Assembly: GCA_973895155.1 (NCBI GenBank)
Contig: OZ316894.1
Location: 248,001 to 312,000 of the forward strand
Direction: 5' to 3'
DNA length: 64,000 nucleotides
Source: Marsupella aquatica
Lineage: Eukaryota > Plantae > Marchantiophyta
The notes beneath the pieces were generated by a model that was not told where the DNA came from, searched no databases, and worked only from the letters and a program-made list of their open reading frames with translations. Below, one piece after another: positions 2,792 to 61,552 of the stretch. How positions within the stretch are numbered: position 1 is the first letter of the stretch; each line of letters starts with the position of its first letter. The position numbers and the translations under genes were made by a program.

Positions 2792-3190
2792 GAGGTTTTT
2801 CCCCATGACAGGAAACAGAAAACAGTAACAATCATAACAGGAAAAAGAGAGGAACAAAACAGGAGATTTGGTACTAGCATACACAAAAGATGACATAATT
2901 TTGGACAAAAAAGGAGGCCAATTTCAATAGGAACTCCAATATGTTCAGAGTTCTCTATAGCAATTATGGAAAGAAAAGTTTTACTAGCGCCGAGCGCTAA
3001 CCAAGAGTTTGTTGCCGTTCAAAACAACATTAACAAAATGTCCATTCAACGTATCGTCGAATGATCAAAATTCCTATTAACCATGCAGATTCTCCCTTCC
3101 TAAGATGAACTGGAGTTCTCCGACATTCACAATTGGCTGGCTCGGTAAGACCGAATACATCGGATCAAGCTTAAAGATCGTTTTGTCACA
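2792..3190 (-). mobile_element. Right-end fragment of a Mutator-like (ParB-MTase family) element: transposase C-terminus, 3' UTR and terminus
   Basis: Minus strand 3078-3180 translates TIFKLDPMYSVLPSQPIVNVGELQFILGRENLHG*, homologous to NVFKLEVEESTLCSQPIWTVGEVRLVLERQNLNGL* at 60780-60882; terminus GAGGTTTTTCCCCATGACAG resembles GGGTATGATAGCCATGACAG at 61552; palindrome at 2985. Confidence 0.7.
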
Positions 3191-3645
3191 GGGCTTTCCA
3201 TCTGACAGGGACCCGATTCCAGTAACATGAAACAACCAATTTAAACAATAAAAAAGCCACGCATAGTATTCGCAGCATATTTGGAGGACACTAGAAAAAA
3301 GAGAGATGAAAGAAACAATTGTATAGAGGCGGGTTTATATAATTGTGGAGGAGAATAGAACATAAAATAGTAGCGCCAGGCGCTAGCAACACGCGCTACT
3401 TGAAAAAGAAATTACATTGATATCCAGAAGATAATAAAAGTCCATAACCTTCGAGAAAAAGAAATAACCCTAATAACATACTCAAAAAACCTAATGCGAT
3501 AACAAAACGGAAGAAGCAATAAAGCTAACTCGGCCGAACCGGAGCCCCCATTCAAAAAGATGACATGAATCAAACTCATGAACGACTCCAACGATGAGAT
3601 GAAAGCTAGCGCCAGGCGCTAGCGTCGAGAAGAAATCCACACTCT

Positions 3646-4116
3646 CTAGGAAGTAGAAGACAAGCAGTCGTCGTCCAACCCAACTTTGAACCTATCCTCA
3701 TCCTGTCGAAACCCATCCTCTCGATCCAGAAAAAAACGAGGTCTGGGATAGCGACTCCGACTTCGGTCGTTCGGGATGTTCGAATCGGAAAAGCTCACAC
3801 GTCCGGTGTCTGCTTGGATGTCTCTGAAAAAAGCTGTCCTTTCCACCCGATACACATTCGAAGGATCAGGGTCGTGAACAGAGAACCTCTCTCGGAAAGG
3901 AAGTGGAGGCGAAGGATCACGCGATGGAAGGTGTCCAGTTCTGTGGCTAATACCCTCATCCGTGGCCAGCCACAACCTGTTCCTCTCGGTCGACGTCTCC
4001 GGGCACTGTGTAAAAGATGGAGTCAAATCTAAACCCGGATCTCTAATCGACCTCCAAACCATCGCCTTTGGCGGATTGCAGCTCTCCGATTTCGCTATTT
4101 GCTTTCCCTTATCCAT
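3646..4116 (-). CDS. Transposon ORF3, 156-aa protein of unknown function
   Basis: Shares blocks with 46266-46727: TSTERNR..DEGIS/TSTFRNR..DEAIS, SPPLPF/SPLLPF, GRVSFSDSNIPND/GRVDFKDNNIPNE, GLDDDC/GLEDDC. Confidence 0.65.
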   Translation of the reverse strand: MDKGKQIAKSESCNPPKAMVWRSIRDPGLDLTPSFTQCPETSTERNRLWLATDEGISHRTGHLPSRDPSPPLPFRERFSVHDPDPSNVYRVERTAFFRDIQADTGRVSFSDSNIPNDRSRSRYPRPRFFLDREDGFRQDEDRFKVGLDDDCLSSTS

Positions 4117-4577
4117 TCAGTCGATGAAAACAACGGATGCAAAACTCAGGGAGAAGAGAAGAGGTGAGTCCGGGCAGACCAGAAATGAAACAAAGGGAAG
4201 AGGTGAGTCTGGGCAATGCACAAACGAAACGAAGCGAAGAGGTGAGTCGGCGCGTCACAGAAATGAAAGGGAGAAATCCGTTTATGGTTGAACAAACTCG
4301 AAGTTGACCAATCCCAAAGTTCAACAAACACTACACTTTGAGAGAGTCCAAACGATCATATCCACCACAAACCAAAATACGTACAGACTGAAGGTATAAT
4401 TATTCACCGTACAACTGTACGAGTACATGCATTTTTGATATCTGCACAAATATGCACTCAGGAAAGAGACTCCCGGTGCGTCTAACTCATTTAAAGTCTC
4501 AGATCCGAACACCCTGTTTAATAGCGCCGGGCGCTAGTACAAGGTTCCAAAGAAAACCTTAGAAATTCCCAGTCAAC

Positions 4578-7500
4578 CTATTCCAAGTCATAAGACTCGG
4601 ACTCGCTACTGCCAGACCTATCAGTAGACTCAGCTTCGTCATCTATAAATTTGCTTCTAGGTCCATCGTTGAGTAAAGGCTGATGGATGAATTTCCTATC
4701 TGAACCTCTTCTTAACCTTAAGCCCTTACTCTCCCAAGTAAGGGTTCTCCTCTGTTCTTCTTTTCGGGCAGCATATTCTGCATATGATGGCAACACGAAA
4801 GGCTTCTGAGGAGAAACAAGAACTTTTCTCGAGGATTTCCTCCGAAGATTAAAACGTTCTTGAAGATTCCACTCCGATCTGGAAGAGGAACGGAACCATA
4901 TTAGAATTGAAAATGAAAATGGGATAGTAACAAAATCGATAATGTAAAGTGAAGTAGCTTACGGGCATTACTCAGAAGAATCTGAATCTTCTGTTTCTTC
5001 CATCGTATGCCTCTCCTTCTCATCTCCGTCATTTTCCTCTCCTTGTCCTCCTGAAGCATCATCTCCAACAGCATCTCCATCCTCTTCATCTTCAGAGTCA
5101 AAATTTAAGACAGAACGAACTTTATCTTTTTGTTTTCTTCCCACATCTTTAGCGGGAGATGAGGAACTGACATCCTTTGGAATCAATAAATCCATCCATG
5201 TCTTTTCCGCAATCTCAACAAACTCTTTTCGGTTTTCTATACCAAGAATAAAACGTCCACAATAGTCACCAGCAACAAATGTACTTCCCGAACCCACAGT
5301 CCAGTCCATGACAATGTCACCCGGACGAGTGATTAACTCTAACACAGATTGCATGAACCCAACGGACAAGCGTCCATTGCCAGCAAACGCTGCTGAAGGA
5401 GTTGGATCCTTCTTCACACTCGGGAGACCAATAAGGTTAGTGATAGAAGGATCTTCAGTCGCAGAGAGGGGTCGAAACTTGGGGTCCTTTGGAACCTTAA
5501 CCTTTGACAAAATACGACTGAACAGATCCAATCTCAATGTGAAAACCTGTGAAATCCCAACAAAGTCCATTGTTAAGATGCCGACGATCCAACCAGAAAA
5601 TCATTCAAATCATGGCATAACAATGAATTTTGGATAGCGCCAGGCGCTAACAAAGAATATCCCCTTAACTGAAGGGTAATGAAAACATTTTTAGCTAGCG
5701 CTCGGCGCTAACAAAGGACAGCACGAAGAGTGAGAGAATTTACCTGGCAATCACTTCAGGCCATGTACATTGGAACTCCCATAACCACGTTCAGGGTTTT
5801 CACACACTGAAACTTTTGAGACTCCTGGCTCGTGGCAATGACCTGCGAGATCTGATCATACTCGCCAGTATGCAAAATGGCCAATATACCATCATCTGCT
5901 AGAAACGGGTCCATTGCGCGAAAGAATGAACCAACAATTCTGTGATCTGGGGAATTCCATTTTGGAGACTTCTTCTCTAAAAGGGATGGACGCAGTCCAG
6001 TTGGGAGGTAAACGAATCCAGCATCAACTCCAAATGATCTTATCTTTCCTCCTCTTATGACTCCTTTCTCCCTTAGACCAAGCAAGACTAGGTCTTTCAC
6101 CCACTTCTCCACATTTGACACCCAAGCTGGTTTCTGCTCTTTCGTGAACACACTCTCAAAGAAGTCCATTACACTGGACTCAACAAAAACATGCCTAGAA
6201 GTCTTACACTTGAACTGTCCAACATCTCGTTGAACACCAGTAGAAGCGACCGAATCCCGAGAGGAAAATCCATGATCCGAAGATTTCTTTTTCTTCTTCT
6301 TTGTGCTGGTGGCATCTGCAGGTCGCACCATCTTCTCCGTGTTGGGAGGAGTCTGTTCATCAGGGAATCTTGTTCCCCCGTATCAGCTTCAGAGACTCCA
6401 GGAGTGACAGTCGTCTTTGCATCTTGTGTTTCTTCTCCATCCGATTTCCGTCCACCTAGAAAAAGATACAAAAGTTTCCAAGATTACGGTCCACATAACA
6501 CCAGCGCCGGGCGCTAACCAAATTGCACTCCCGGGTGCTAACCAAATAGACAACTTGATCTGCAGCGCTCGTAAAAAAAATACAGAATGCCACTGGAAAA
6601 TAACATAAGCGCCGGGCGCTAACCAAAATGCACAAAAATCAAGCAATAAAGGCACACCAACATATGTGGCGCTTAACAAAAAGTCACCTAAATATCCAAA
6701 CTAGTGAAGAGAAAATACTGAATGCCAATGAAAAATAGAAGAATCTCACGTTTCTTCCCAGATCTCGTTGATGGGCTGGTTACTCCAGTGTCTACTTTTG
6801 CTTTCGCCCTGGGTTTTCGACTCCTGTCTACATGCAAAACTTCTGTTTCGCAATGTTTCTGCAGCTCGCTCGCCGAGGCATCTACATCTTCCGATAAACC
6901 TTGTTTCATTTCAGAGAGAACTTTCCGAGGCACTAAAGACTTTGATAATTTCAGAAATGCATCCTTTTCAGCTTCATCGAAAGGGGTGTCCCACTTATCT
7001 GTGTCAAGATACCATGGACAGTGGGTTATCTCCCACAATGAAATTTCACGTGGTGGAACGTCCCCTTCGGCAGGGTACATTGAGTAAACTTCGCTAGAAG
7101 CATCCCCCTCTAGAACGGACCATTTCTGGAATGCAGGAGGTAAGCCCAAAAATACTCTAGAGAACTGGTCTCCATGGCCATGTAGAAGCGATACAGATAT
7201 CTCTTGGCTCGCTTCTGGTTGCGAATGGTATAGTCTTCCTTGTCTTCGTACTTGGACTGCCAAATTGTGCTAAAAAACTTCGCCTTCACTGTTTCACCGT
7301 ATGTCTTGAAATCATTGGTGATGTTCAAGACCAATGCTTCAAACGTCTCCACTCCTCCTAGCGTTAGACGATCAGCAGGTAGGATCGACTGGACTTGCAA
7401 AAGAGATGTCTGTAACATTGCAATTGCAATTCCTTCCACCAAACTCCACATGTGCCATGTATGACACCACTGTTTAACAGGGTCATCATTCACACTCGGG

Positions 7501-8146
7501 GGATGGTAAAATTGTTTTCTGAGCTCTGGTGTACAGTGAGCGACAAGAAGAGTACAACGTAGTTGTGGATCCAAGTAGGAGACAACAGTGAATAGACGCG
7601 CGCGGTCCATTGTACATACTACAGAGTCCGGCTTCTTTTCTCGTTTGTTCCTCTCCGTAAGAATGTACATTTCTGCACAAGTTGACAGAAAATCACCAAA
7701 CTCTGGGCTTACAGGGGGGTAATCTTGGATGTCTTTATGCTCCACTCCTTCGTTGCCTCCTTCATCATGGCAGCATACCGCTTACCTCGGGGGTTTCACT
7801 TCCACAAAAATGGCATATCACGTGCGACGAATGATAGGGTCATTTTATTGGTTCTAAGGGAAGACTTAAGAATTTTTGTAGAAGAACAATAGGGTCTTTT
7901 AAATTCAATTTTGAGACTTATAAGAACATTAGGGTCTTTTTAATCCAAATTTTAGAATATTCCAAGAATATTCCAACTTTATAGGGGTTAAAAAATAAAT
8001 TTTTTTTCTTACATTTTAGGGGGTCCAAGGCCTAAAAACGTCGCAGGCGATGGGGAGGTCCCCATATAGTGAGACCCCCGAGCCGCTTACCAGTCTCTTC
8101 AGATGACCACGGGCGACCTTGACTTGCCGCAGCAGCCAAGTCAAGC
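4578..8146 (-). pseudogene. 3' part of the spliced ParB-like/DNA-methyltransferase-like gene (diverged copy; frameshifts, stop, MITE and LTR insertions)
   Basis: ORFs 7110-7745, 6688-7263, 5756-6331, 4968-5570 and 4578-4796 are colinear with 47426-50516; GT-AG introns at ~6456-6749 and 5547-5743; motif ELITRPGDIVMDWTVGSGSTFVAGDYCGRFILGIE. Confidence 0.8.
7786..8082. mobile_element. MITE, 297 bp, 15-bp TIR, 8-bp TSD
   Basis: CTCGGGGGTTTCACT...AGTGAGACCCCCGAG; TSD CCGCTTAC at 7778-7785 and 8083-8090; removal restores the reading frame GKRYAAMMKEATKEW. Confidence 0.9.
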
Positions 8147-12808: not shown

Positions 12809-12812
12809 TTTT

Positions 12813-12830
12813 TGGCGCTAGATGGAGGGG
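12813..12830 (+). promoter_or_regulatory. Primer-binding site complementary to tRNA-Asn
   Basis: TGGCGCTAGATGGAGGGG 4 nt after the LTR; one mismatch to the complement of the plant tRNA-Asn 3' end (CCCCUCCUUCUAGCGCCA, recalled rather than searched). Confidence 0.8.
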
Positions 12831-12877
12831 GCATTTCTTAAGCCGTGAGATATGAAGTTAGAACGGAAGCGTAGGTA

Positions 12878-35228: not shown

Positions 35229-35283
35229 GTAAGGGGAGGTCTTTCTCCCTCTTCCCTGAAGTTCCTCTTATTTGAATAATGTC

Positions 35284-37254: not shown

Positions 37255-37626
37255 ATGACAATAGTGGTAAGGACTTGCGGACGCGGCAAGTTTTATCAGC
37301 ATTCCACAATTTCTCAAACTTTTTGATGGTGAAAACCGAGCTTGAAAACCATAGTTGCCAAAATCAGAAAGTAGTGAACATTTCAACGTCGGGTGAGGAA
37401 GGGAGAGTGACGATGGTTAGCAAGATAATCTGAGGTCTACCTTCCATGGACGCATTGATTCACATTGATCGCAATTGATTTAGAGGACTCTCGTTCAAAC
37501 CATTGAGAATACAGGGGAGCTTTCATTGTGAAATAGCTTGAAGCTAGACATCAGCAATCAATGGAGGAGGTTCGAAAGGAGCTTTGTTGGCAACACAGGC
37601 AAGGTAGTGAAGGAAGTTCAAATTGA

Positions 37627-45862: not shown

Positions 45863-46265
45863 GGGAATTTACAAACGATAGCAAACAGATAATAGTAACA
45901 GCAAACTGCCATATATAATTGCAAAGTGCATAACGCGTTCGGCGCAGGTCCAACAAACGCCCATATAAGTTACAACCTGCAGGCCTAGAAATCTGATATA
46001 CAGAAGCCACGGTCGACCCCGGCTGAGGATTTCCAGTAAAACAAAAGTAGCGCTGGGCGCTAGCCAAGAACTGCAGGAAAAACTATGGAATTCCTGAAGA
46101 CAACATCTGGGAAAAGTCCTAACAACTAAGCCGAGGGCGACTCCATCCCAAAACATCAAAAGAGCTTAAGCAGCGCTCGGTGCTAGCTTAAAGTGATCAC
46201 CAAACTGAACAATGCGATGCCGTTCTTCGTGAAAAACCGGAGGAACAAGCAATAAGTGATTGCAT

Positions 46266-46727
46266 CTAGCTTTCAGAGTCGCAATCATCCTCCAATCCTG
46301 CCGCTTCTCTCCTCCAATTTTTCTTGAAACCAAGACCACGCAATCAAATGTATCTCTCAGAAGGACCCCGACGCACTGCCCTCGTATAACCTTCATTGGG
46401 AATGTTATTGTCCTTAAAGTCAACTCGCCCAAACATTTCTTGAACTCTCCTATCAATTGGCAGTACACCATCAACAGGAACAGCCTGATGAGACAAGAAC
46501 GTGCTTGCAAATGGGAGCAGAGGAGAATCGACAATCCATGGGATGTTGTTTTCTCCAGGACTAATAGCCTCATCATACGGTAGAGCGTGACGGTTCCGGA
46601 AAGTAGAGGTTTTAGTTTCCTCAGTCTCCATCTGTGACTCAAAAAAACTGAAATGGCTCTCTTCTGGACGCACACGAGAAGGGAGGAACGTTGCCTCCCA
46701 ATCCATGAGCTCACCGTTTCTCACCAT
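46266..46727 (-). pseudogene. Transposon ORF3 (premature TGA at 46344-46346)
   Basis: Homologous to 3646-4116, including GLEDDC beyond the stop. Confidence 0.65.
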
Positions 46728-49700
46728 GTTTAATGAATCCAATCTAGTGGCAACTTTCCCTTTGAAAAAATGCGAAAACTGTTTGCAAAAGGCCCGCAAA
46801 GGTTTGAAAATGGTCGTGGGTCCGAAAGATCTCGTCTGGGAGGAATGTCTCCCTCGAAACACCCGAAATGTATCTCCAAAAAAGGGGCCGCAATCGGGTG
46901 TCTGTCCCAAAATAGTCGCCTGTCCAAAAACTTGTGGTCCGCGACAAGTGTCGTCCTTGAAAACCGTCATCAAAAAGAGATCCTAAAATATCGTCCGAGA
47001 GAGATGCCGCCAACAAGAGATCCTAAAATGTCGTGCAAAAAAGTTGTCAACAAGAGATCCGAATGTCATCCAAGAGATCCGAAAATGTCGTCCAAATATA
47101 GCCGATGTGGGTATCTTTGGAAAACTAATGGACCTAAATGAAATGGCCGTTGGTATCCGAAACGTCTATTATACTATGTATTTACTACTATTTGTCTAAT
47201 TATGATGACCGTTGGTAGGACACGACAAAGACCAAACGGCCGTGTTACACAAAGAAGAGCTGGAAATATTTACTTTACGAATCACCATTTGGCGAGCGCC
47301 TAGCGCTTCTAAAAACACAAGGAATCAGACATTAATTTAGAAGGAGTCAATGAGAGGATTTGAATACAAGTTGGTACTACGCCAGGCGCTGGTAAAAAAT
47401 TACTCCCTAAACTCCTCAATACGTGTCACAATTCTGCAGATTCTGATTCGGAACCAGAATCTGAACTCTCGGATTTGTCCGTGGACACAACCTCATCATC
47501 TATGTACTGGCTGCGGGAGAAGTCATCAACAGAAGGATGTTTCATGAACATCCTATCAACACCCCTTCTTAACCGAAGACCTTTGTTTTCCCAGCAAAGC
47601 GTCCTTGTACTCTCGGCTTTCCTTGCGGCTTTCTCTGCATAGGAGGGAAGAACAAAAGGTTTTTCTGGTGTTTCTATGTTGTGTCTAGCAACCCTCCTTC
47701 ACAGTTTGAAACGTCTCCTTGCATTCCACTCTGACCTGATCAAACAAAATCCAGCAAGTTAGGAGCCTCGGTTTCATCAGGAGATCATCACTCTCGGTTT
47801 CATCAGGAGATCGACGAGGTTCTTCCTTTTCCTCCTCCGAGTCCCTTGTACCTTGTTCATCTCCATCTCCACTTTCACTGGACTCATCACCAGAATCAAA
47901 ATTGAGTACCGACCGAAGCTTATCTCGCTTCTTTCTGTCGGCAATAGGAACAGGTGGAGGTAAAACCACAATCTCTTTGGGAGACAACAAATCCATGAAA
48001 ACCTTTGAAGTGGTTTCAATAAATTCTTTTCTATGTTCTATCCCGAGCACAAACCTCCCGGAGAAGTCTCCAGCAATGAAGGAGCTTCCAGCCCCAACGG
48101 TCCAATCCATAAAAATATCACGAGGTTGGGTGACAAGCTCTATGACAGATTGCATAAAACCAACAGACAGGCGAGCATTTCCAAAAAATTCCATTTGCGG
48201 GAATGGATCGGATTTGAGAGAAGGGAGTCCGATCAAATTGGTGACCGAGGGGTCCTCACTAATGGAGAGTGGACGGAATTTAGGGTCTTTGGGAATTTTG
48301 CATTTCCCATTAATTCGACCAAATATGTCCAGCCTGAGGGTAAACATCTGCGGAAAGCAATCCCAAGTGTCAGTTGGCAACTCCAAGTTAAACGAGTTAT
48401 ATTTCAAAATGCGACATTGTTAAGAGTACATAATTACCTGACGGTCTGTCTTTGCAGCGTACATCGCGACAGACATTACAACATTATGCGTGCATGCATA
48501 CTGAAATTTTCTCGATTCCTGACAGGCAGCAATGACTTGAGACATGGGATTGTACTCCCCATTGTGTAGAATTGCTAGGAATCCATCATTTGATAGAAAT
48601 GGATCCATGGACTTGAAAAAAGATCTAGCCATGGAGTGATCTGGAGTGTTCCATTTAGGAACCTTCTTATCTATGATTGTTGGTTTGAACCCGGTCGGTA
48701 GGTAAATGAAACCGGCATCCACTCCAAACGATCTTTCTTTTCCTCCCCGCACAACACCCTTCTCTTTATATCTCGACTTAACGAGATCCTTCCCCCACTG
48801 CTCCACATTACTAACCCAATCAGGTTTTTCCCCCTTGTTGAAAGTCGAGTCAAAAAATTTGGATATGCTTGTCTCAACCATGGCATGATGAGACACTCTA
48901 GTTTTGAAGTTTCCAACTTCACGTTGGACACCAGATGCTGCAACACTCTCCCTTGTAGAAAGTCCACCTTCAATAGCTCGCTTTCGTTTCTTCCTAGTAC
49001 TTGTGGCGTCAACCGGAACTATTACTTTCCCCTTGTCGACAGGAGTAATGGGGTCCAATTGGGCTCCGGTGTTTGCCTCAGAAACTTCAGGTGTAGCATC
49101 TCCAAATTATATCCCGTTCCTTTAGTATCTCCTGTTCCCGCTGTATTAGACTTCCTCCCTCCTAAATTATCAATAGGTCCTAGTTAGAACAAGTAAATCC
49201 GGAGTATTGAAACAAGCTAGCGCCAGGCGCTAACCAAATGAAAATCACTTAGGTCTCAACAAAGGCCTAAGAATCTAGAAAGAAATGTGAATTCGAATGA
49301 CAGTTCTAGCCAGCACTAGGCGCTGGCCAAACCACGGAACATTATACTCACTTTTCCTCCCAGATTTCGTTGACTCACTTGGTGCTGCTAACTCCGCTTT
49401 TGCTTTCGCTCGAGGTTTTTGACTTCGGTCCACATGAACAATAGTCATTTCACAAATACTTGGCAAGTCTGTTGCAGACTTGTCTACATCGTCTATCAGG
49501 CCCTGCTTCATGTCGGACACAATTTTTGCTGGTATGTGGGACTTTGAAAGCTTGTGGAATGCATCTTTCTCCTTTTGATCAAAAGGAGAATCCCATCTAT
49601 CTGTATCTAGATACCATGGGCAGTGAGTTCTCTCCCATTCTGTCATAGGTCTCGGAGGAAATATGCCCTCCGCTGGGTACATGGAGTACAAATCAGCTAT

Positions 49701-50689
49701 AGCGTCATCCTCACTTATTGTAATCCACTTCATGAAAGTTGCAGGATATGCCCAAAAGTAATCAGGTTTGGTTACCTCCATGTGCATGTAGAACCTGTAA
49801 AGATACCTTTTAGCCCGCTTCTGGTTTTTTTGGGTGTAGTCTTCTTTGTCTGGATACTTTGAAGGCCACATCGTGTGAAAGAACTTACTCTTCACAGAAT
49901 CACCATATCTCTTGAATTCATTTGTAACAAACTGAACGAGATCATCAAACGAACCACAATTCCACTCTTCTAATCTAGTCGCGGGCATCGTCTGCTCTAC
50001 TTCACGCAGACATGAATGTAACATGCCGACAACAATTCCCTCTACACTATTCCAAGTGATCCAAGTATGACACCATTGTTTGACTGGGTCGTCGTTAACA
50101 CTTGCCGGGTGGAAAAACTGTCTCCGCAGCTCAGGATTGCAATGTGCCACAAGTAGGGTGCTTCGCAACTTTGGGTCTAGGGCAGAAACAACAGTGAACA
50201 ATCGGGCGCGGTCCATTGTACATACGACGGCGTCAGGCTTCTTCTCTCTCTTGTTTCTCTCTGTGACAACATACATTTCTGCACATGTACTAAGAAAATC
50301 TTCAAATTCAGGACTTAACAAGGGCGTAATTTTTGAGGACTTCACTGCCCAGTCTTTGGTTGCGTCCCTCATCATGGCCGCATGGCGTTTGGAAATCTCG
50401 TCCACCGACCAGGGACTCCCTTGAGCCTTGGCTGCCTCCATATCAAGCTTGAATTGGTGAGAATATGACTTTATCTTATTCTCACATAGAATGTAAACAA
50501 GAGCTTCCTGTGACATCTTCTTCGTATACCATGACCCCTTCCGAGTCTTTAGCCGAATGCTCTCAATCTTCTTGAAATTAGCTGGATCAATCAGTTTACT
50601 GTAATACTCAAGGTCATGCGCCAGAATTTGTTTGATTCTATCTGCATCGAGAATCCAGGATGGCTCAACAACGGCTTGGCCAAGCCTAC

Positions 50690-53600
50690 TGTGATGCCTA
50701 GACAGGAATCACTCGGCCGGTTAAGTGGGTAAAGCAGGAAGGCACCCTAGGAACACCTTAGTATAGTGACAAAACAAGGAAAATATAAACAATTAGGGGC
50801 AACCATGGAACCCGGGCAGAGGCCGGAGGTAAGGCTGAGGGTGAAAACCCGATTAGGGTTAGGGCGCGTTAAGCGTCGGCGGCTAGGAAGGATCAACGGG
50901 AAGAAGGACCGGCAGAGGAGAGGGGTAAGGAGCGCTTGCAGGAGATGGTGGCTCATTTGCGAGCACGAACTAGGCAGACGACTACGGGAGGCCAACTACT
51001 GTCAGCTGCTTAGGCAAGCACTCGGGGAGAGAGTAGATACCGACGATCAACCTAAGGAGGGTATGAGCAACGTCAATCAAGCGGCACATTTCTGGGGATG
51101 CCTGTTCGAACGGGCAACTGAGTACATCAAGACTTACGAGGACGAGGAGTCAGAAAGGGCAGCTCGAGAACGGCAGGAGCTCGCTCGATTGTGGGAGCTG
51201 CAGAAGACGGCTTTCTTAGGAGGCGAACTCATCAAGGACGAGTTCCTGTGGACGCCTACTTCCAATCAACTCGACGATCTTCTGTTTTGCAAGGACAGCG
51301 TCGTCGGCATCCGAGAGGCCATCAAGAACTGCAACGACATACACTGGGAATTAAAGGGTAGCACGGAAAGGTGGACCCAGGCAACGGTGCTAGGAGAAAC
51401 CTCCACGGCAGCAGAGATGAAGAGGAAGGGAGCCGTCAACGATGAAGCCACCCCGGCAAAAAGAACGAGGTCGGCGGCACCAAAGAAGCCAGCCGAGCAG
51501 CAGAGCAGGAGGCAGGGAGAAGCCGAAGAGGAGGAGGTCGATCCCATCAAGGCCATTCCAACCAGGGATGACACCTGGAAGGGCTGGGCGGCAACCCTAC
51601 CGGTGGAGGTGCAACTACATTTTGCACGGGAGGAGGATGCATGCTTTACGGCCATGCAGACCAAGAAGTACCAAGGCTTCATGGCCGGATCCGGCTTGGA
51701 GGCCTTTGTAAGATTACCATGGCTGAAGCCGGAGGTACCGGAGTCAAACCTATTAGAATTCGTGGGGTCATGGGAACCCGAGACCAATTGCACGAGGATA
51801 TATGGGAAGGATTTCTATCTTACTCCCAAGGTGATTGCCGAAGTGTTTGGCTTGCCGATGGGCAATAAGACCAAAGTTGATACCAGGAAGACCTTGCCTG
51901 ACAAGGAGTTCCGGTCGTTCCCCGGGCCATCAACGAAGAATGGCTTCTTCCGGAACACCTGCACCAACCCGCACATAGGAGAGATGATCGACTTCTTGCG
52001 GGTGACCATGCATTGTAACTTGCCGAGGGCAGAGATCGGCAAGGCACAGGTCTATCTGGCAGAAAGGCCAGACCCAAGCCGGGACTACAATGGGTACCTC
52101 CTCAACCAATTGAAGAAGATCTTAAAGGAGGAGCAGCAGGTCATCGGCATGGGGAGCGTGTCGCGGCTTGGCTATCACATGCCGCTGTTGTGCCGGTATG
52201 CCAGAGGTCAGACTTTTGCCCCGGTACTTCCCCTGCAGGTAAGGGCACCCGAGGAAGCTCCAACGCCGAGGCCGTTGGCTGAGAAGCCTCAACCACCTGT
52301 TAGTCCTATGATCGAGCAGGTGTTTAGGCCCAGGAAGGAAGACTTGCCGATGCAGCAACCAGGCATGCAGAGTCTGCTGAAACTACTGGAGAAAGAAAAG
52401 AAATCGGCATCGGCAACAACAACGGCAACGGCAACAATGCAGGACACTACTACAGAGGTAGGCCGACACCGGCTCACAAGAGAAAACCCCTTTGCTGGAG
52501 ACAAGGAGAGAATCAGGCCGGAATCCAAGCCAGGTGTTCGAATGTACGTGGGAACCTCAAGCTCCGAATCTGAGGCAGAATTGCCTGAAGCTCCTACCGA
52601 GGAAGAGGAGAGGGAGAAGCCGGAAATCCAAGAGGTAGAGGAGGCAGTGGAGGGCTGCAGCCATGATAATTCCGGCTATGGGTCGGACCATCACGTTCCA
52701 GGAGTAAGGACCTGTGGCCGGTTTGTCCCCACACTTCCAAGGGTAGTGCGAGGGGACCCCAACCAGCAGAGTAGCCCTGAGTCTCCCCCACCAGATGTTG
52801 CTCCCCCGAGCTTCGACGGCATAAAACAGACGGTGCAGGAATTTCAGGAGCGAATCAAGCAGGAGGAAGAGGCCGCCCTGGCTAAGGAAAAGGATTTACC
52901 AGGAGGAGATTGGCCGGAGGACATCAGGCGGCTAGCCGAAAAAGGAAGCAAACCTCTAGCCACGATTGAAGAGATCCGCAGGACGGCTTGGGAGCAGAGG
53001 CCACGATGGGCGATGCCGATCACTTCTACTTACTCCACCTACGCTAAGAATAGAGCCATGGAGTATGGTGAGATGTGTGGGGAACTTGCGCTCGGCATCT
53101 TTGGAGAGGAGTTGGAGGTAGGACCCTTTTTCCATAGGGAGCAGTTGGAGAAGCACCAATTAGAAGAAGCGGTGGCTTTAGAGAGAAGCAAGAAGGACGA
53201 GGTCATTCGGCGGCTTAGGAGGATGGGAGCCGAGATTGAAGATCTAAGGGCGGCCAAGAAAGCCCAAGATGAACTGCGGATTAAACGACATGAGCTGAAC
53301 ATCATGCAGGGGCAGTTGGACGCCGCGCAGGCTGATAATCAGAATATCAAGGATAAACTGACTCAGACGCAGGAAGAGTTGGCCGACACGATCAAAGAGA
53401 GGGAGAAGTGGAAGCAAGAGCTGAAGAATACAGAGGAGGCCCACATAACAGCCAACAGCCGGGCCATGGCGGAGACCCAAAGAAAGGAATGGGCGTTGAA
53501 AGGGGAGCTCGAGAAAATCCGCGGAGCCCTTGAGCAGAAGGAGGTCGAGTTAGGGAAATCCTATCAAGGGATTATGGCGCTGCAGCAGGAGCTTGCGTCC

Positions 53601-55319
53601 CTGACGGCCAGCTTCAAGGCCGACCTAAGGGAGAAGGACGAGATGCTCGAACAGACTTACGCCAAGATGAACCAGATGGAGTCTGTCATCATTGCAGAGC
53701 TCGACAAGGAGCTAAGAGCAACCCAGGAGGAGAAGGCTACCTTGAAGAAGGAATTGGAGGAAGCCCACAGGGAGCAGGAGGAGGCCAAAAACGAGCTGGA
53801 GGGGGCACGTAAGGACCTGGATGAAACCCAAGAGGAGTTGGAGGAAATCACGAGGAAGATGGAGAACCTACAGCGGCGGGCCGACAACCAAACAGAGCGG
53901 CTGAAGAAACAAGCCGCAGTATTTAAATGCTTAGCTGCAGCAGGTCCATCTCCTGTTGGGACAAACCAGTTACCAGGGGTGGTAATTGCCGAAGGACAAG
54001 CCGCGCCACCTGCACCAGTGCCGGAATTAAGTGGGAAGGGGAAGGGACCCGAGCCACCAACGAAGAAGAAGCGGAAACCTTCAGGGTCAAGGAGTAATAC
54101 GACTTCACAGGCCGTGGTGATCAAGGAGGTAGACCCAGCACCGACCCCAGACAGGGTCACGGCTAAGGATCCAACTACCCTAGGGGAAGGGGAAGCCGAA
54201 GCCGAGGGAGTGGCTGAGGCCGAAGCCGTGGGTATTGTCGAGGCCGGTGTCGAGGCTGAAGCCAAAGGTGGACCCAGTCAGGCCGAGGGAGAGTTGACTC
54301 AGTCAAGGGCAGGTAATCTGTCAGTAGGCGGGCCAACGGCAGTGGCTGAGGAGGAAGTGTTGGGGGCGTCCATTGAGGATCCACCACCGGTGTCGTGACG
54401 GTGCAAGGGCGCCGTTCCTTTTAGGGAGGGCGGACGTGGAGGGAGGAGGCGTGAGTGGGCAGGGCGGGCGCGGATCTCCACGTTTAGGATTAGGATCAGA
54501 ACCAGGAGCGGCCCTGACACTTAGCTTAGTGGGATTGCGGTCCCACTGGTAGGAGCAACACTTGTGCTCCTGCCTTGCTGTACATAGGTAGATTCAGGCA
54601 AGTAGATTACTGTTAAGTAGATTAGGCTTACGATGCAAAGAATGGCGGATCCACTACCAGGATAAGTACCTGGGCAGCGGGGAGCTCAGGGCCTCTTCTT
54701 TAGCAAGTTTTTAGTTTGCACCAGCCGGGCTGGGATCAAGTAGTACGAGAAGCTCTCGGTTAGTCATACAATGACCCTTGTGTATATTCATGTTTCCTCA
54801 TGCCTAAGAGCTGAATAGAGTTGGCCTCACGGCTTAGTTCGCAGAACTTGTGTATGAGATGTACTGTTTGTATGGCAAGTGCATGGTATGACTCAGTCAG
54901 AATGAGTCATTTTGCTATTTGTGTGTCGCATTAACTTGTGTGAAGAGTGCCCACATCAACAGAAGGAAGGAAAGTAAGCAGGGGAGTGAGAGTTGGATGT
55001 GTCGAGCTGAGAGAGGTCTTAGCGGCTTAACCAAGCCTATTGGGGATCATTCCGGCGGCGGAATCCAAACATACCTAACAAGACGGAGGGGAAGACAGGG
55101 GAAGACAGGGGAAGGCCTATATTAGGCCGGCTACGTATCTCATGACCCGATGAAGGATCTGTCCAGTATATGTGTGTAAAATGTTAATAGTAGTAGTAGA
55201 AGGTTAGCAGCGTCCCATGCCGCTAAGCCGCGGAAACGGCCTCGCCAAGCACGAAACCTGCGGGAATCGGCTTGAGCTGGGGGGTTTCTTGGGTTTAGGG
55301 AGCCATGGGACGCACCACA
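50690..55319 (+). mobile_element. Solo LTR of family A (4630 bp) with 5-bp TSD
   Basis: CCTAC|TGTGATGCC...GCACCACA|CCTAC. Confidence 0.96.
50805..54398 (+). CDS. Intact 1197-aa LTR-encoded protein: Arg-rich N-terminus, plant-mobile-domain/Athila-ORF1-like core, long coiled coil, KKKRK, acidic tail
   Basis: Open frame from GCAACCATGG; EFVGSWEPETNCTRIYGKDFYLTPKVIAEVFGLP resembles the PMD W.PET...T..D/V....GLP pattern; no evident transmembrane segment. Confidence 0.85.
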   Translation: MEPGQRPEVRLRVKTRLGLGRVKRRRLGRINGKKDRQRRGVRSACRRWWLICEHELGRRLREANYCQLLRQALGERVDTDDQPKEGMSNVNQAAHFWGCLFERATEYIKTYEDEESERAARERQELARLWELQKTAFLGGELIKDEFLWTPTSNQLDDLLFCKDSVVGIREAIKNCNDIHWELKGSTERWTQATVLGETSTAAEMKRKGAVNDEATPAKRTRSAAPKKPAEQQSRRQGEAEEEEVDPIKAIPTRDDTWKGWAATLPVEVQLHFAREEDACFTAMQTKKYQGFMAGSGLEAFVRLPWLKPEVPESNLLEFVGSWEPETNCTRIYGKDFYLTPKVIAEVFGLPMGNKTKVDTRKTLPDKEFRSFPGPSTKNGFFRNTCTNPHIGEMIDFLRVTMHCNLPRAEIGKAQVYLAERPDPSRDYNGYLLNQLKKILKEEQQVIGMGSVSRLGYHMPLLCRYARGQTFAPVLPLQVRAPEEAPTPRPLAEKPQPPVSPMIEQVFRPRKEDLPMQQPGMQSLLKLLEKEKKSASATTTATATMQDTTTEVGRHRLTRENPFAGDKERIRPESKPGVRMYVGTSSSESEAELPEAPTEEEEREKPEIQEVEEAVEGCSHDNSGYGSDHHVPGVRTCGRFVPTLPRVVRGDPNQQSSPESPPPDVAPPSFDGIKQTVQEFQERIKQEEEAALAKEKDLPGGDWPEDIRRLAEKGSKPLATIEEIRRTAWEQRPRWAMPITSTYSTYAKNRAMEYGEMCGELALGIFGEELEVGPFFHREQLEKHQLEEAVALERSKKDEVIRRLRRMGAEIEDLRAAKKAQDELRIKRHELNIMQGQLDAAQADNQNIKDKLTQTQEELADTIKEREKWKQELKNTEEAHITANSRAMAETQRKEWALKGELEKIRGALEQKEVELGKSYQGIMALQQELASLTASFKADLREKDEMLEQTYAKMNQMESVIIAELDKELRATQEEKATLKKELEEAHREQEEAKNELEGARKDLDETQEELEEITRKMENLQRRADNQTERLKKQAAVFKCLAAAGPSPVGTNQLPGVVIAEGQAAPPAPVPELSGKGKGPEPPTKKKRKPSGSRSNTTSQAVVIKEVDPAPTPDRVTAKDPTTLGEGEAEAEGVAEAEAVGIVEAGVEAEAKGGPSQAEGELTQSRAGNLSVGGPTAVAEEEVLGASIEDPPPVS

Positions 55320-56191
55320 CCTACACGAAGAGATGCAGCGAGTTAGAGTCGAAGTACAATTTATGTATAACCAGCGCCGAGCGCTCTTAAATAGAACACT
55401 TGCAAGATTCAAAGAAGGTACCGGAAAAGAACGAGAACTTACTGATTCACGATGTGCATAGCTACCTCGATTTCAATAACAAATCCCTTGTCTCCCTTAA
55501 ATATTGTGCAGAGCACTCGAGGATGGTATTTTGGATTGTCAGGGTTCTCGGTAACAAGCGTCCATGAGTACAGCCTATGATTTCCATCAAAGACAGAGAA
55601 CATCTTATCCTTCAGCACGAGAAAATCTGGATCGGCCTCGCATTCAGCCTTAAACTTCTCGTTCTCCAATTGCCAAATTGGATCCCATGACTCACAAATC
55701 TCCTGGGTACAGGTCAGAACAATTCCATTCTCATCCGTTGGCTGCACATAGAAACGCATTCCTATGGAGGAATTGTAACCCATACTGCAAAACGAGTCTT
55801 TCAGCTTCTTGATGGAAGAGCTATCTTTCTACAAAGTACGAACCACCTCCATGTGAACAAATTGGCATAGAGGGATTCGAGGCGGCTCCTTGTCAAATCC
55901 ACAAGAATCCTTTCCAAAACACATGACATGTTTTGAGATGAGATCAGTCTCCGCGAGTGCGCAGACCAAAACATCTTGGATTGCAATCGTGTCGAGGTTC
56001 TCCATCTTTCTACGCAAAGATTTAGGAACCAAAACAGCGCTAACAGAAGTAGGAGGCAGCAGCTTTGTGGAACGAGTTACACGACGTGTATAAACTGAAC
56101 CAGTAAACGAAGACTGCGAGGATTCAGAATAAGCTCACTCTTGGTCAGGAGCAGCACTATACCCTCTGGATGAAGAGGGGAATACCTCCAT

Positions 56192-57149
56192 CGTCTTCCT
56201 TCCAGAAGCGTACAAACTATTGTACAATGAAATTATGGAACTCTAATCAACTCTCAACGTGTAATATATTCTAGGAGGGTGGAGTTCAGCGGAACTCTTT
56301 GATTAAAGCGAGAAGCTCGTAAGTTTGGCGGATTCCAAGTATGTATGCAGAGAACTTAATTAGCAAAATCAAGCGGTAGAAGAAGCATAACACACACAGA
56401 ACTCATAAGTTACCGTTAAATGTTACCGTTATGACCATTTTCTTCCCTCACTCGAAATACTAGCGCCGGGCGCTATTATAAACAACTTCCCATGAAGTAG
56501 ATAATTTGGATGATTGTCATGGCAGCGCCCGACGCTAGTAAAAATAACAGCTATAGAATAGGTCTGAAATGGTGTCTCCAGTAAATAAATTTTGTGAAAA
56601 CAACCCCATATTTGAAGAAATATATATTGTTTTAATGGTTTTTGGGAAACATTACTTGCATCCTATACTAGCGCCCGACGCTAGTGATAACGGGTATTTT
56701 TCATCCATAGTTTTAAAATAATTCACATTTTCATTGATCATTTAAATCAAATTATTCCATAGTATTGATGGATATCTGGAGGGTTTTTCGTATACCAGCG
56801 TCTGGCGCTGTATGAAATATCAAGATTTGGGGCATATTATGTTTGAGATATTTTAGTTAGCGCCAGGCGCTACTCAAATTGTTCCAACTATACAATATCT
56901 TAGAGTCTATTAAAAATTTTTGTGGTATCTTTTTTGGCATTATGTACGTGTCTGACATCCGGACTTATCGGGGAAAAACGACAAAATTCATTTATGGCGC
57001 CAACGGATCCTATGTCGACTATGTTTTATGTCTTACACAAACGGATATGTTAACGTGAAGTTCCCATGTTCGACTGATATAAGCTCCATATTACCATAGA
57101 CTTTTCTTCCTCGAAACATTACAGCCCTCGTTATTTGTTTTCGATTGCA
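56192..57149. promoter_or_regulatory. Divergent promoter region with five TAGCGC-NNN-GCGCTA palindromes
   Basis: Lies between the two ATGs; palindromes at 56461, 56523, 56669, 56796 and 56858. Confidence 0.7.
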
Positions 57150-60100
57150 ATGTCTCGGTCCATCGTTCTATCCTGATTCGGGACTGGGGATATTGTGACC
57201 ATCCCCGTCCCTGTGGAAGACACGTACAAGCAGGTCCGGGAGAGATACCTTTGCGAGAGATTTGATTTGAAGATGAATGATATTGAGGCCATTCTTCGAG
57301 AGCTCAAAACCAGTGATGACATTGAAGATGCAACAACATTCAATGTGGATGATGGTGAACGATTTTGGCATCTATATGCAGGGATTTTGTACTCACTTCG
57401 AGTAAGACACCATGAAGGACCGTCCAGTGTCCCCCAAGTTCCATTTGATGTTGTCGAGATTTCTTCTAGTGAAGATGGGGATCACACTCCAAGTCCTACG
57501 TTGAAAATGAAAGTCCCGCAACATGCTATTGTTAAAGGTGAGACTCTAGGAAGCTCCAACCAGTTGGAGGTCGTGTATCGGCGCAGTGTGATTGATACGT
57601 TACTCAAATCCACTGGTCATAGCGAGTTATCAAGGTTCATATCAGCGGGTGATTTCAGACATGAGCAAGTCTCCTGTCTGCCAACTAAGTATAATGGGAA
57701 CGTCGTGTTTGAATTGCCACCAATTGACAAGATGCTCTCTAAAGGCTTTAGGCTTAGGGACATGGACCGTGCCAAAGATTGCTACATTTGGACACGCATA
57801 TTTCCAACTACCGCGAACGTCCAGCCAAAAAAACTTTGGCAATTCGGTAAGGTTACCTGTACGGGATTCATTGAATGTCGGAACAAGTCTTGCGAGTACT
57901 TCCAAAGGAAGAATAAGGCAAATGCTAAGGCATGGCAGGGTACTCCAAAGCTTAGTGGTCAGTATGCTGTCGGATCTTTTATCGAAGAGGGCGGTGTTGT
58001 GTGTCATTATTGTGATCAGATTCCTTTTTGTGTCAAGTACTTCCCTGCCCGGTTGCTCTATATGTACCTGCAAGTATTACTTGATGCGGACACATGTAGT
58101 CATATGTCCCACCTGGCAATTCATATATAGGTGAGCATAACCATCCAGGTAGAAAAATCTTCTGTAGGAGTGCGAAGAAGATGGCTGAGGATTTAATTTA
58201 AAAAAATCATGAAGCCAATCCTCTGGCAAAACCAGTTGGGATCTTGAATTCTGCTATAGGCCTGGGTCCATAGTGAAAGCTATCTGCGAACATGTTGACG
58301 ACATGGTTGATATTGAAGAAACTGAAATATGGAAGTCTCTGATGGTACTTTCCACTCCCCATAAGTTTGCATCTCTTTGTCGAAGCGTTAGGATAGACCA
58401 AAAGGGTCGGGGTGAACTTGATTTTCTATCGCAAATGCAGAAGAAGATTAACCTGTCGTTTCTCCAGAGGTATTTGCTCCCAGGTCAGGGATGTCAAGAG
58501 GACAGGCCTCACATCTTTAAAATGACCACGAAGGGTCACGGTTCCGGTGTGGATCTTTTGAGATAGATGCAACCTGGTGGAAGACTCGAAGGAGCCTGGG
58601 TCAGTTTCGATGTCATGCAACATATCACAACCGATTGGTTTACTTTTAGCGCACATGTCTACGACCATAACTTCCGTGCACTTTGTACAATTTTCACATG
58701 CGAGTTGAAAGGTGAAGACACTGAGTCTTTCGGAAAGGCTTGGAGAGTTATGATTGAGGTTTGCAAGGAGAATGGATTACATGAGGTTGTCATCCAAGGG
58801 TTTATGGCGGACAATGCATAAGCTGGATGGAATGTTGTGCGGAATGTTTTTTTGGTGGACACCCAGACCCGGAGAGGGAGCGCTCTGATGCATTTCACTT
58901 TTATCAATCTTTCCATCGGCATTCCAAGGAAGGAGTACTCGAAGAATGTCAATCGGAACATCGGAGACTTTGGGAGAAACTAAGAAACGCTCCAACGTTT
59001 GTGGTAGCCTATCGCGTGTCCTGAGAGATTGTGGTTTGGTGGCAATCAGGAAATTGTGTCCCTGGAAAGCTCATGATGCTACAAAGCTGGATATCCCGCT
59101 GGGTTGTTTGATGGTGCTAGTGGGGAAATTTTATTCAAGTGGTATGACAACCATCTCCTCTCTTGTCTTTCATTTCCATCAACTTTATATTAGCGCCAGG
59201 CGCTGGTATGATTTGCTCGTATTTGAGTCCAACATGTCCATAAAGTTCCAGAATCATACTTGCAATTGTATTTCACGTATGTTATAAATACTTGTCGGTG
59301 TCAGCGCCGGGCGCTGGTAATACAATGCTAGTACTGATTATTGCATTTGGACTATGGCAGAGCAAAAGCGCAGAAGAAGGTGCCTTGATTCCCAACTGTA
59401 CAGGGTCAGAATCAAGGCATGCGTCTATGAAAGCCTGGGCTACAAAGAAAAAAGTTGGTCTTTTTGAAGCATGCAAAGTGGACCAAAACCGAGCCTTGTC
59501 TCAAGTTGCGGGATACAGTGCATATTGGAAAGGGTTGAACAGAGGAAAGGGACCAACTATATGGGAATTGGCGTTCCGTTCCGCCGATCAAGCAGGTTCG
59601 CCGAGGTTATTTGAAGATGTGACCAACATGCTTCTTTCCAACGCGGCGGACTTTGATTTGGAAAGAAGTACTCCCCTTAACGGAGATATTGTGACCAAGT
59701 CAATGAAGAGAAAGGGACATGCAACTGGGACTGTCTCTCCACAAGACTCCCACCGGCATGACACCGTTCTCATAACCACACCAAATACTCGTGGTTTGAA
59801 AAGGAAAAACCTAAACAGAACTGACTTTGCCTCCATTCCCTCAAATTCTAATGATCCTGTGACAAGAGTGGTGAATCTCTCTGGTATGGACACATCAGAT
59901 GGTGATACTGATTCACTGGACAATACCCCTCAAACAACCCGTACAACAAGATCCACAAAACCTCCACTCAGTGCACCAGCCTCACTTCAAAATCCACTTC
60001 CACGGACGATTGTGCTAGAAAAGGATGTCCCTCTGGGGCAGTGGCAGCTGCGACGGACGTCCAAGTATGGAGCAGGTCCCCAGTGTAATGGGACACTCAA

Positions 60101-60882
60101 TGGGAGTTCTGATCACAATGAGTGTCGAAATCGTATCAAGAAGGTTGGCTTCCATTCGTCTGACGGTGTTGTTGGAATTGTTGTGAAGGGCCATCGTCTC
60201 TTCAGGGGCGAACCAATCTCCGGAATGATTTGGTTCTGCCCAAACCAAACCTGTTATAAGAGTCGTCCGTGTCGTGGTGTTCATCAGCTTCCTCCTCTTC
60301 CTGAAATTTTGCCTGTTTTGAACGGTACGAGCCTATCTCCTTCTGAAATCACGTTCCTCGAGGAGCAAGGACTTGTCTTAGCCCGAATCGAGTCGATCTA
60401 TGCCATCTTTGTTTGACCTCAGGATAAATGTGAACGTGTTCCCAGAAACGATAAGGTTTTTGGAGCCAAATGTCCGGCTGGGTAGTCGGAATGGGAGGAA
60501 CTCAAGACCTCGGTCTAATCTCACTGTGGGTCACACTAAGCGAATGGAGTCTGCACGACAAGAAGAGATGAGTTTGGATGGGGAATGGAATGTTCGGACT
60601 GGAAATGCTTTTGGAAAACAATTTCAAATTTGAACCCATGAGAACCTTCGATCACCAAGCACGTACTTCATGCAAATCTGTATCTTCCCTGCTTGCTCCT
60701 GTGAGGACTTCTTCCTATGACATTCGCGTGGCAAGTCGTACATGCCTTGTAAACATCTATACTGGGTGTACATAAATGTTTTCAAACTTGAGGTTGAGGA
60801 GTCGACTCTTTGTAGCCAACCAATTTGGACTGTGGGCGAAGTCAGGCTTGTCTTGGAGAGGCAGAACTTGAATGGCTTATAA
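57150..60882 (+). pseudogene. MULE/MuDR-like transposase with Cys-rich N-terminus and C-terminal SWIM finger; several stops and frameshifts; intron ~59141-59360
   Basis: VSFDVM, GFMADNA-AGWNVVRNVF, ERERSDAFHF, PNCTGSESRHA, CSCEDF..PCKHLYWV. Confidence 0.82.
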
Positions 60883-61552
60883 TAGGGGCCGAAACTTCCG
60901 TATAGGTCGTTCAATATAACGGATAGTCACTATTTTGTCTTTACCGAACGGATATGTTACTTGTTTTATTCAGTATTTTTTGGTTAGCGCCGGGTGCTGC
61001 TTCCAAAAATCTTATTTTTCTTGCTTTTTTATGTACGCGTGTAGTGTAAGCATTACAACATGTTTTATTTAAAATGTGTAAGTTGATATCATTATGTTTT
61101 ATCTTTCAAGCCACGTTTATTCAATTATTCTGAAATGAATTGTTAGGTGGTGTTTTGTCATTTGTTTGTCACGGTACTCGGTCCATTTAAGTGAACTCAT
61201 TTTGATTGAGTTCATTTGGACACTACTCTTCACTTGTTTTGTGGTGGGTCCCACCCTAAGGTTCACTTTTTAGCTTGGACGAATAGTGATATTTGAATGA
61301 ATGTTTCATTGAGTATAGTCCCCATACCGTGTTATTTATATACCCTAAATAATTGTTTGTTTTAAACCTAATTCACTAAAGAAAAATTCTGTGATTAGCG
61401 TAGTTTTTCATTCGGACCAAAGGGCTATGGTTGATGCAAAACTGGTAACAGGGAATCGCTTATTGGTAACAGTTAAATTTGACTGTTAACAGCAAAAAAT
61501 TTCCTGGTAACAGGTTTTCTGTTTTATGTTTTCTGTCATGGCTATCATACCC

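Follow-up and report, generated by a model that had tools for sequence, protein, structure and literature searches.

Transposons that carry a ParB-like protein as cargo have been described in algae. In Ectocarpus, the element Sola1-1_Ec32 carries, opposite its transposase, a gene for a 1104-aa protein with a ParB-like part and an N4/N6 methyltransferase (MTase); its authors propose that this protein binds and modifies its own element, and the part of their account available gives no cognate site (PMC12477816). In Bostrychia, Plavaka transposons carry ParB cargo genes (PAG3/PAG2) next to inverted repeats in tandem, to which the ParB protein is proposed to bind; the same element also has a PF01555 MTase, and homologues occur on Mutator elements of Chondrus (10.1101/2025.02.11.637652). 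In Arabidopsis, the element VANDAL21 encodes the accessory protein VANC21, with a short motif in intron, intergenic and terminal non-coding DNA (PMC5735166), and the Plavaka study states that, among the accessory proteins of transposons, VANC alone has been described to bind and modify the element that encodes it (10.1101/2025.02.11.637652). Here we compare with these systems a locus of the liverwort Marsupella aquatica, a stretch of 64,000 nucleotides (assembly GCA_973895155.1, contig OZ316894.1, positions 248,001 to 312,000 of the forward strand) referred to below as the window. It contains a Mutator-like transposon, element B, which carries a ParB-MTase cargo gene and in whose non-coding DNA a palindrome is repeated. 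An initial annotation, made from the sequence alone, had listed about 29 copies of this palindrome as TAGCGC-NNN-GCGCTA and interpreted them as cognate sites of the cargo protein. In the reading that we somewhat favour, the ParB-fold protein encoded by the element would, as a dimer, read the palindrome, load, spread and keep the element active.

Consensus and distribution of the palindrome

Element B (45863..61552) is a dead, complete-looking copy of about 11 kb when a solo long terminal repeat (LTR) is left out, and it is flanked by the 9-bp target-site duplication (TSD) TCTTTTTTG at 45854-45862 and 61553-61561. It is nested within a sister copy, C, the halves of which resume on either side. 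The left part of C (44292..45862), about 86% identical to B, holds ParB exon 1 and the divergent promoter, and its continuation on the right (61553..61881, plus strand) holds the start of the transposase gene, truncated by another element. Element A (2792..8134, minus strand) represents a diverged subfamily, with a protein identity to B of 59-65% (about 60%); it begins within the ParB-MTase gene, of which the 3' part is kept and the 5' part was lost through an LTR element, and reaches as far as the left end. Both subfamilies are multi-copy in public sequencing runs, A in 4/4 of them. A very high-copy insertion of about 300 bp, resembling a miniature inverted-repeat transposable element, lies inside exon 2 of A (7786-8082).

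When the window was scanned for TAGCGC-NNN-GCGCTA with at most two mismatches, 26 matches were obtained against 0.77 expected, a number reached in 0/100 shuffles; the twenty-sixth, at 3384, is a weak extra that overlaps the match at 3371. The list of the initial annotation held up well, as 25 of its 29 coordinates were found to the base among these matches and the remaining four proved to be real, more decayed sites. The sites at 49311 and 56796 reached position weight matrix scores of 15.8 and 13.5, the one at 44292 scored 9.8 and is truncated by an LTR end, and the left arm of the one at about 47377 is short by one base.

The layout of the site had to be redrawn. The 3-bp spacer, which had been described as variable, is constrained, with C-N-G in 18/25 sites and the others one or two changes away (CAG 7, CGG 7, CCG 4, CGA 2, TCG 2, CAT 1, TGG 1, CTA 1); the pattern is C-N-G with C>T/G>A decay. 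Moreover, the base two places before the T was a purine in 50/50 strand readings (25 sites, both arms). The resulting consensus is RNYAGCGCC-N-GGCGCTRNY (as a search string, RNYAGCGCCNGGCGCTRNY), and the arrangement of two 6-bp arms around a free spacer gives way to one of 7-1-7 plus an extra flank constraint. Many of the deviations are indeed C>T/G>A transitions, as had been stated: over 27 sites, 17 changes were of this kind, 17 fell at the outer T/A and one was of another kind. A CG-rich word has been retained in AT-rich DNA despite C>T/G>A decay.

With the core TAGCGCC-N-GGCGCTA, 22 sites were found in the 18,302 bp of element DNA (8, 9 and 5 with 0, 1 and 2 mismatches) and none at any of these levels (0/0/0) in the other 45,698 bp of the window, which comprise LTR elements, a PPR gene and other repeats; the Markov expectation was 0 in both. 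Within the 64-kb window, this establishes the confinement of the motif to the element, and the absence of close copies from the LTR elements and the PPR region is borne out over those 45.7 kb. The restriction to non-coding DNA was likewise found again, since the inferred exons, drawn from homology and GT-AG ends and not from RNA, hold 0/27 sites, though they make up 12,263 of 18,004 bp (68%) of element DNA. The probability of such avoidance was 4e-14 if sites were uniformly placed, and 3.5e-9 when the copy-C duplicates were left out and the stop-codon frame was barred. One site, at 46171, lies about 15 bp from the boundary drawn for ORF4 and could be coding.

The sites are distributed over introns, promoter, intergenic spacers and subterminal DNA. 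Five are located in the divergent promoter of B (56461..56872; at 56461, 56523, 56669, 56796 and 56858), and their five orthologues lie in the promoter of C (45386..45798; at 45386, 45448, 45595, 45721 and 45784). B has two further sites in the transposase intron (59191..59316; at 59191 and 59302), one in the right subterminal DNA (60985..60999) and one in ParB intron 1 (55372..55386), the orthologue of the latter in C being the LTR-truncated site at 44292. ParB intron 2 (49218..49325; at 49218 and 49311), the spacer between ORF3 and ORF4 (47294..47391; at 47294 and, with a 1-base deletion, at about 47377) and the left subterminal DNA (46048..46185; at 46048 and 46171) contain two sites each. 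In A, two sites plus partial copies were found in intron 2 (6502..6621; at 6502 and 6607), two sites in intron 3 (5635..5710; at 5635 and 5696), and the others downstream of the gene (2985..4536; at 2985, 3371, 3607 and 4522, with the weak one at 3384). Intron 3 carries two sites in A and none in B, so that sites are gained and lost over time.

Conservation and decay of the palindrome

Three orthologous non-coding regions (intron 2, the ORF3-ORF4 spacer and the left subterminal DNA) were aligned between A and B, and in 3/3 of them the best local alignment was the motif itself. This agrees with the earlier statement that the arms are kept between subfamilies where the surroundings no longer align. 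Variation among copies was analyzed by mapping four public runs from two studies on the 481-bp promoter, a place being taken as variable when at least a quarter of the depth differed. Of 33 variable places, four were inside motif cores and all of these restored the consensus; core places departing from the consensus numbered 0/70, against 29/411 variable places elsewhere (Fisher p=0.009). The same contrast restricted to places with split copies, classified by eye, gave p=0.04. These comparisons are taken as signs that the motif is under selection.

The copies could also be a neutral by-product of mini-insertions, excision footprints or local duplications. Some neighbouring sites do share flanks, for instance ..GCGCTAACCAAA in intron 2 of A, and local duplication does make copies, as in the metagenome locus L017 considered below. 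However, the direct repeats flanking the 19-mer measured 0-3 bp, with no constant length, at 27/27 sites; the motif outlasts its flanks between subfamilies; and other copies revert to the consensus. Mini-insertion was rejected for want of any TSD-like flank, and the neutral by-product reading, largely refuted, is considered extremely unlikely.

A palindrome with many intronic copies might instead be recognized by a host factor, or act as an RNA or DNA hairpin in splicing or silencing, a signal captured and then multiplied by the element. Against this, sites are also present in the promoter and in subterminal DNA, 0 copies occur in the 45.7 kb of other DNA, the host PPR gene included, and related elements seem to carry a different palindrome. 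In addition, the would-be loop bases are constrained (C-N-G) and the arms are kept rather than co-varied. We give this explanation little chance of being right.

The cargo protein and its candidate role

The transposase gene of B is on the plus strand, and divergently from it run the ParB-MTase cargo gene, of four or five exons, and then ORF4. On the minus strand, exon 1 (55443..56191) encodes a predicted ParB/Srx-fold domain with the box DGNHR and contains two premature stops, exon 2 (49352..50685) a helical middle region that is the candidate DNA-binding part, exon 3 (48438..49161) a linker and the MTase motif IV region VDAGFIYLPTG, and exon 4 (47781..48347) the MTase motif I region (DWTVGAGSS) and an acidic tail. 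The solo LTR (50690..55319, plus strand), which is motif-free, is inserted at the acceptor of intron 1 with the TSD CCTAC at 50685-50689 and 55320-55324. The reading frame named ORF3 (47426..47760, minus strand; counterpart in A at 4578-4958) had been treated as a separate protein; it has a plausible splice acceptor and a weak similarity to the C-terminus of the Riccia protein P0034 (p=0.02 in B and 0.15 in A), and may represent the final exon of the cargo gene. ORF4 (46200..46982, minus strand; counterpart in A at 3646-4116), of unknown function, is 38% identical between A and B over 97 aa.

Homologues of exon 1 numbered 206, and the ten that were looked up comprised seven from Riccia sorocarpa, one from Adiantum nelumboides and two unnamed. 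One member of the Riccia cluster, of 1207 aa, covers the protein from ParB through MTase. DGNHR or EGNHR was present in 77/164 proteins examined, and the conserved GNHR matches the GxxR box of ParB proteins (PMC12704722). A structure model covering 486 residues of a relative from Riccia, based on a 111-row alignment including the window exons, was confident (pLDDT, the predicted local distance difference test, 88.6). In Foldseek, the top eight rows for this model were Noc and ParB, and in a VIA structure search the top 14 chains belonged to the ParB/Noc/KorB family, the best with Z 8.8 and a root-mean-square deviation (rmsd) of 2.4 Å over 99 residues. The N-terminus of the cargo protein is accordingly described here as a predicted ParB fold, as the initial annotation had it.

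Other searches added little to this picture. A PDB sequence search gave chance matches only for the ParB exon and none for exon 2, and a deep alignment yielded nothing useful. No full-length homologue of exon 2 was found among longer proteins, a weak negative given that full-length Riccia proteins surfaced through exon 1; an Atlas search with exon 2 returned scores below 0.9 only, and a fold search with the AlphaFold2 (AF2) model of the window exon 2 was empty. No ParA-like match was obtained among the element open reading frames scanned with Pfam and PHROGs.

The MTase part of the protein stands by homology, with matches to Pfam N6_N4_Mtase (PF01555) at E=0.003 in B and 1.5e-8 in A, and to DpnA/CcrM, but its catalytic motif is degenerate and methylation of the site by it is unlikely. 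Motif IV, assigned on a 10-row alignment with Riccia and fern bridges, reads YLPT in 3/3 members of the window family, against DLPY in a phage relative; it reads DLPT, DMPS or DMPT in 4/4 Riccia proteins and DVPF or DFPI in two more distant relatives, one of them named Adiantum. When exon 3 was compared as a profile with a single phage MTase, the same motif was aligned, at a non-significant probability of 0.1%. Since both the D and the Y of the DPPY-type motif are replaced, the MTase domain of this family is probably catalytically dead, a pseudo-methyltransferase.

This bears directly on the possibility that an active N4C/N6A methyltransferase, encoded by the element, methylates the palindrome and thereby labels the element as self. 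In favour of it, the domain shows homology to phage MTases of the beta class that carry CDLPYG and DNTMGSGTT, both A and B retain motif I, and D-x-P-F is preserved in fern relatives; the core CCNGG also resembles bacterial methyltransferase sites. Usual MTase targets are, however, much shorter than 15-19 bp. An active methylase was rejected on the degenerate motif YLPT, which the Riccia variants parallel, and on the overly long site, and this explanation is regarded as very improbable.

The transposase is another candidate reader of the sites. Its gene in B (57177..60882, plus strand) has several stops and an inferred intron at 59142-59360; DDE-like and SWIM-like motifs and a Cys/His-rich N-terminal region were recognized by eye only, and a Pfam scan of the broken pieces gave no match to Mutator-like elements. 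The termini, GGGAAT../..ATACCC, are of the GGG.AT type, with a weak, short and degenerate similarity over about 30 bp. Because of such ends with only weak terminal similarity, B was counted as a Mutator element of the type lacking terminal inverted repeats (non-TIR), a group used for comparison together with the Mutator TSD range of 8-11 bp (PMC6446971), within which the 9-bp TSD of B falls. The assignment to the Mutator superfamily is based on the TSD, on the termini and on the motifs seen by eye. Downstream of ORF4 in A, an exon-like piece at 3080-3290 is 50% identical over 34 aa to the C-terminal tail of the transposase, apparently without the zinc ligands.

If the transposase bound the palindromes, for self-activation or for assembling a complex on an element with near-absent terminal repeats, the ParB gene would be a passenger. 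Sites do occur near both ends (45863+185 and 61552-567) where terminal similarity is short, the Cys/His-rich region would suit such a role, and a Mutator transposase has been reported to activate cognate copies in a sequence-specific manner (10.64898/2026.08.24.746577). Nevertheless, the majority of the sites are internal, in introns and promoter, and a diverged remnant of the transposase family, called D below, has no full site in 430 bp of subterminal DNA. ParB cargo is moreover accompanied by inverted repeats on an unrelated superfamily, Plavaka (10.1101/2025.02.11.637652). Binding by the transposase is thus judged unlikely.

Binding of the site by one or another of the proteins encoded by the element is considered quite probable. 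Binding by the ParB-fold protein is favoured because the site is symmetric, the protein has a predicted ParB fold, the distribution of the sites is VANC-like, and VirB and KorB are regulatory relatives. The two-fold symmetry of the palindrome fits a dimer, which would read the two arms of 7-9 bp by means of the helical segment that follows the ParB domain. A nucleotide, cytidine triphosphate (CTP) or another nucleoside triphosphate (NTP), would then close a sliding clamp, and the clamp would spread along the element in a self-regulation resembling that of VANC. The choice among CTP, ATP and GTP is unpredictable from ParB sequence (PMC12704722). The MTase domain, having lost both catalytic residues, would serve as a DNA-contact or shielding module and not as a writer. 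The least supported step of the proposal is the outcome, which would be anti-silencing or promoter control and not segregation. Of the original cognate-site interpretation, the element-specific, non-coding and conserved motif and the ParB fold stand, but the free spacer and the methylation of the site do not. A more elaborate version, in which land-plant Mutator elements would possess a true eukaryotic counterpart of parS/ParB and an NTP-gated sliding clamp of phage origin would load at helically phased, family-specific palindromes, with the dead MTase as shield or reader against host silencing and with subfamilies co-evolving protein-palindrome pairs, is doubtful.

Evidence from relatives was also analyzed. 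The proteins P0003 and P0009, which form one cluster 36% identical to exon 2, do not stop at the donor site of intron 2; their sequence runs on as LLAPGAS, which is what the motif gives when translated. In 263,400 shuffled residues LAPGA was never met, and this cluster appears to share the motif. Four short metagenome loci (L016-L019) encode the ParB exon. L017, 40% identical to the window, contains in intron 1 two copies of a different palindrome, CTCGGC-N7-GCCGAG (in its full form, ATCTCGGC-N7-GCCGAGAT), and the best alignment of that intron between L017 and L018 was an arm of this palindrome (p=0.011). Upstream of the ParB exon, L017 also carries tandem repeats of 54-57 bp (L017:1-166). At the N-terminus of P0001, a read-through of intron 1 known from the protein gives LRAFFAG where B has LRALGAG over the motif, and a site that agrees in its outer arms but differs at the centre may be concealed there. 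A metagenome scan with the C-terminal half of exon 2 gave 57 stretches, none confirmed, and scans of viral contigs gave 0 motif pairs, 0/96 stretches for the MTase exon and 0/75 for the ParB exon. Motif pairs were present at 14 loci in prokaryotic genomes, as short and nearly identical repeats that lacked the C-N-G spacer and were accompanied by no relative of the element proteins, so that no prokaryotic source of the exact site was found among the genomes searched.

Several results weigh against a ParB-fold protein reading its own palindrome. All copies in the window are broken. Between the dead copies B and C, which differ at 9/84 motif positions and at 62/735 positions of other non-coding DNA, the motif shows no better conservation than its surroundings; seven of the nine motif differences are transitions, which is expected of methylated, decaying copies. 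The phasing of the sites counts in favour of the reading, as the 11 spacings between neighbours (61, 62, 62, 83, 93, 105, 111, 123, 127, 146 and 236 bp) cluster near whole helical turns, with a best period of 10.3 bp and a family-wise p=0.04, but the test is post hoc and weak, with n=11. Two junctions in the run mapping imply, by arithmetic, 63-bp pairs with other linkers, probably orthologous pairs. On the side of the protein, Pfam and PHROGs scans did not detect ParB, no Foldseek row reached E 0.001, and the protein modelled with confidence is a stand-in from Riccia, with 34% identity in the ParB exon. The helices that follow the ParB fold could be superposed on ParB DNA-binding domains only at rmsd 7-15 Å, and the AF2 model of the window exon 2 was of low confidence (pLDDT 47).

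The same holds for part of the comparative evidence. The LLAPGAS read-through comes from a single cluster and from protein sequence, and the window motif was found, at up to four mismatches, in 0/4 metagenome loci. L016, the closest at 54%, covers 575 bp upstream, where it has one half-site, and only 60 bp of intron 1, and L019 has no GC-rich intronic palindrome. Both copies in L017 lie inside one 48-nt duplication, and the pattern was derived from L017 itself; in L018, with identities of 40% to the window and 58% to L017, intron 1 holds a single degenerate copy, matched by 6/200 shuffles. Of the earlier expectation that motif and protein would co-vary, the other palindrome in L017 and L018 remains as a lead from 2/4 loci, but L019 and L016 lend it nothing comparable.

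Neighbouring features and known systems

The window contains other repeats and genes. Ty3/gypsy-like LTRs of about 4.6 kb, which contain a coiled-coil reading frame of up to 1215 aa, occur at 50690-55319, 8146-12808, 18821-23492 and 1-2100. Remnant D (37712-39708) belongs to a more diverged transposase family, 42% identical to B, and has a GGGTAT end; instead of a full motif it carries only two inverted, half-site-like words TATTGYTAGCGARG at about 37870 and 37960. At 61882-62260, the end of another element holds 14 copies of a AAATGTACATTT-like palindrome, about 21-22 bp apart; this element, which carries a DUF7869 gene (62554-64000, minus strand), is a second transposon with palindromic subterminal repeats. 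An intact-looking host PPR-DYW gene (28722-32228), 1168 aa from stop to stop, has highly repeated 101-aa units, and three near-identical tandem units of 411 bp lie at 35462-36692.

ParB-MTase cargo genes, as well as nearby inverted repeats, have already been reported in algal transposons. The two-part cis/trans system of the initial annotation stands as a proposal, and the idea had been published before, for transposons of red and of brown algae. In the literature search, which did not extend to subscription papers, Repbase or Iyer et al. 2011, the exact motif strings appeared in no paper, and none was met that dealt with bryophyte Mutator elements carrying ParB; the available part of the DAM retrotransposon preprint leaves ParB unmentioned. 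As far as these searches show, the Mutator-like carrier in a land plant, the dispersed palindrome with signs of selection, the dead catalytic motif and the second palindrome, found in a related subfamily, are new. Links between ParB and MTase are discussed elsewhere (PMC4738411), and the 4mC (N4-methylcytosine) enzymes of Marchantia retain a TSPPY motif (10.1101/2021.02.12.428880).

Self-binding by transposons with ParB cargo has so far been published as a proposal, and this locus supplies a precise candidate site with evidence of selection. The subfamily with a different palindrome allows a swap test, and full-length relatives are available in a liverwort (Riccia) and a fern. The locus opens the questions of whether ParB-type sliding clamps operate on eukaryotic chromatin and whether plants have a second, independently evolved anti-silencing system. 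A programmable site of 15-19 bp with a spreading protein would also be of interest for epigenome engineering.

Compared by description, Sola1-1_Ec32 and the window element share a cargo gene of about 1100-1200 aa with ParB and N4/N6-MTase parts, opposite to the transposase, whereas the window element is Mutator-like, comes from a land plant, and has a degenerate catalytic motif and a defined palindrome. Plavaka PAG3 likewise shares, by description, a ParB-domain cargo with nearby inverted repeats; there, ParB is fused to a 2-oxoglutarate (2OG) oxygenase and repeat arrays lie beside the gene, while in the window a ParB-MTase fusion is found with scattered single palindromes. The bacterial pairs ParB/parS, Noc/NBS, KorB/OB and VirB/virS have in common with the window element the ParB-CTPase fold with GxxR, which is predicted here, and a multi-copy palindromic site of 15-19 bp. 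Two of these proteins are regulatory: the ParB-like anti-silencer VirB has a regulatory rather than a partition role, and the ParB relative KorB, also regulatory, is among the structure matches of the Riccia model. Unlike the bacterial systems, the gene in the window is eukaryotic and intron-split, with large insertions and without ParA, and for its domain layout the phage fusions of ParB with N6/N4 MTase are the comparison system.

With VANDAL21, element B shares a Mutator-like nature, weak terminal repeats, an accessory protein, the distribution of the motif and its apparent family specificity. The VANC motifs are of 8-9 bp, non-palindromic and in tandem, whereas the window motif is palindromic and scattered (PMC5735166). 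Anti-silencing is proven for VANC; for the protein of this locus, which showed no sign of homology to VANC and which the fold search points to as a ParB, it is proposed by analogy.

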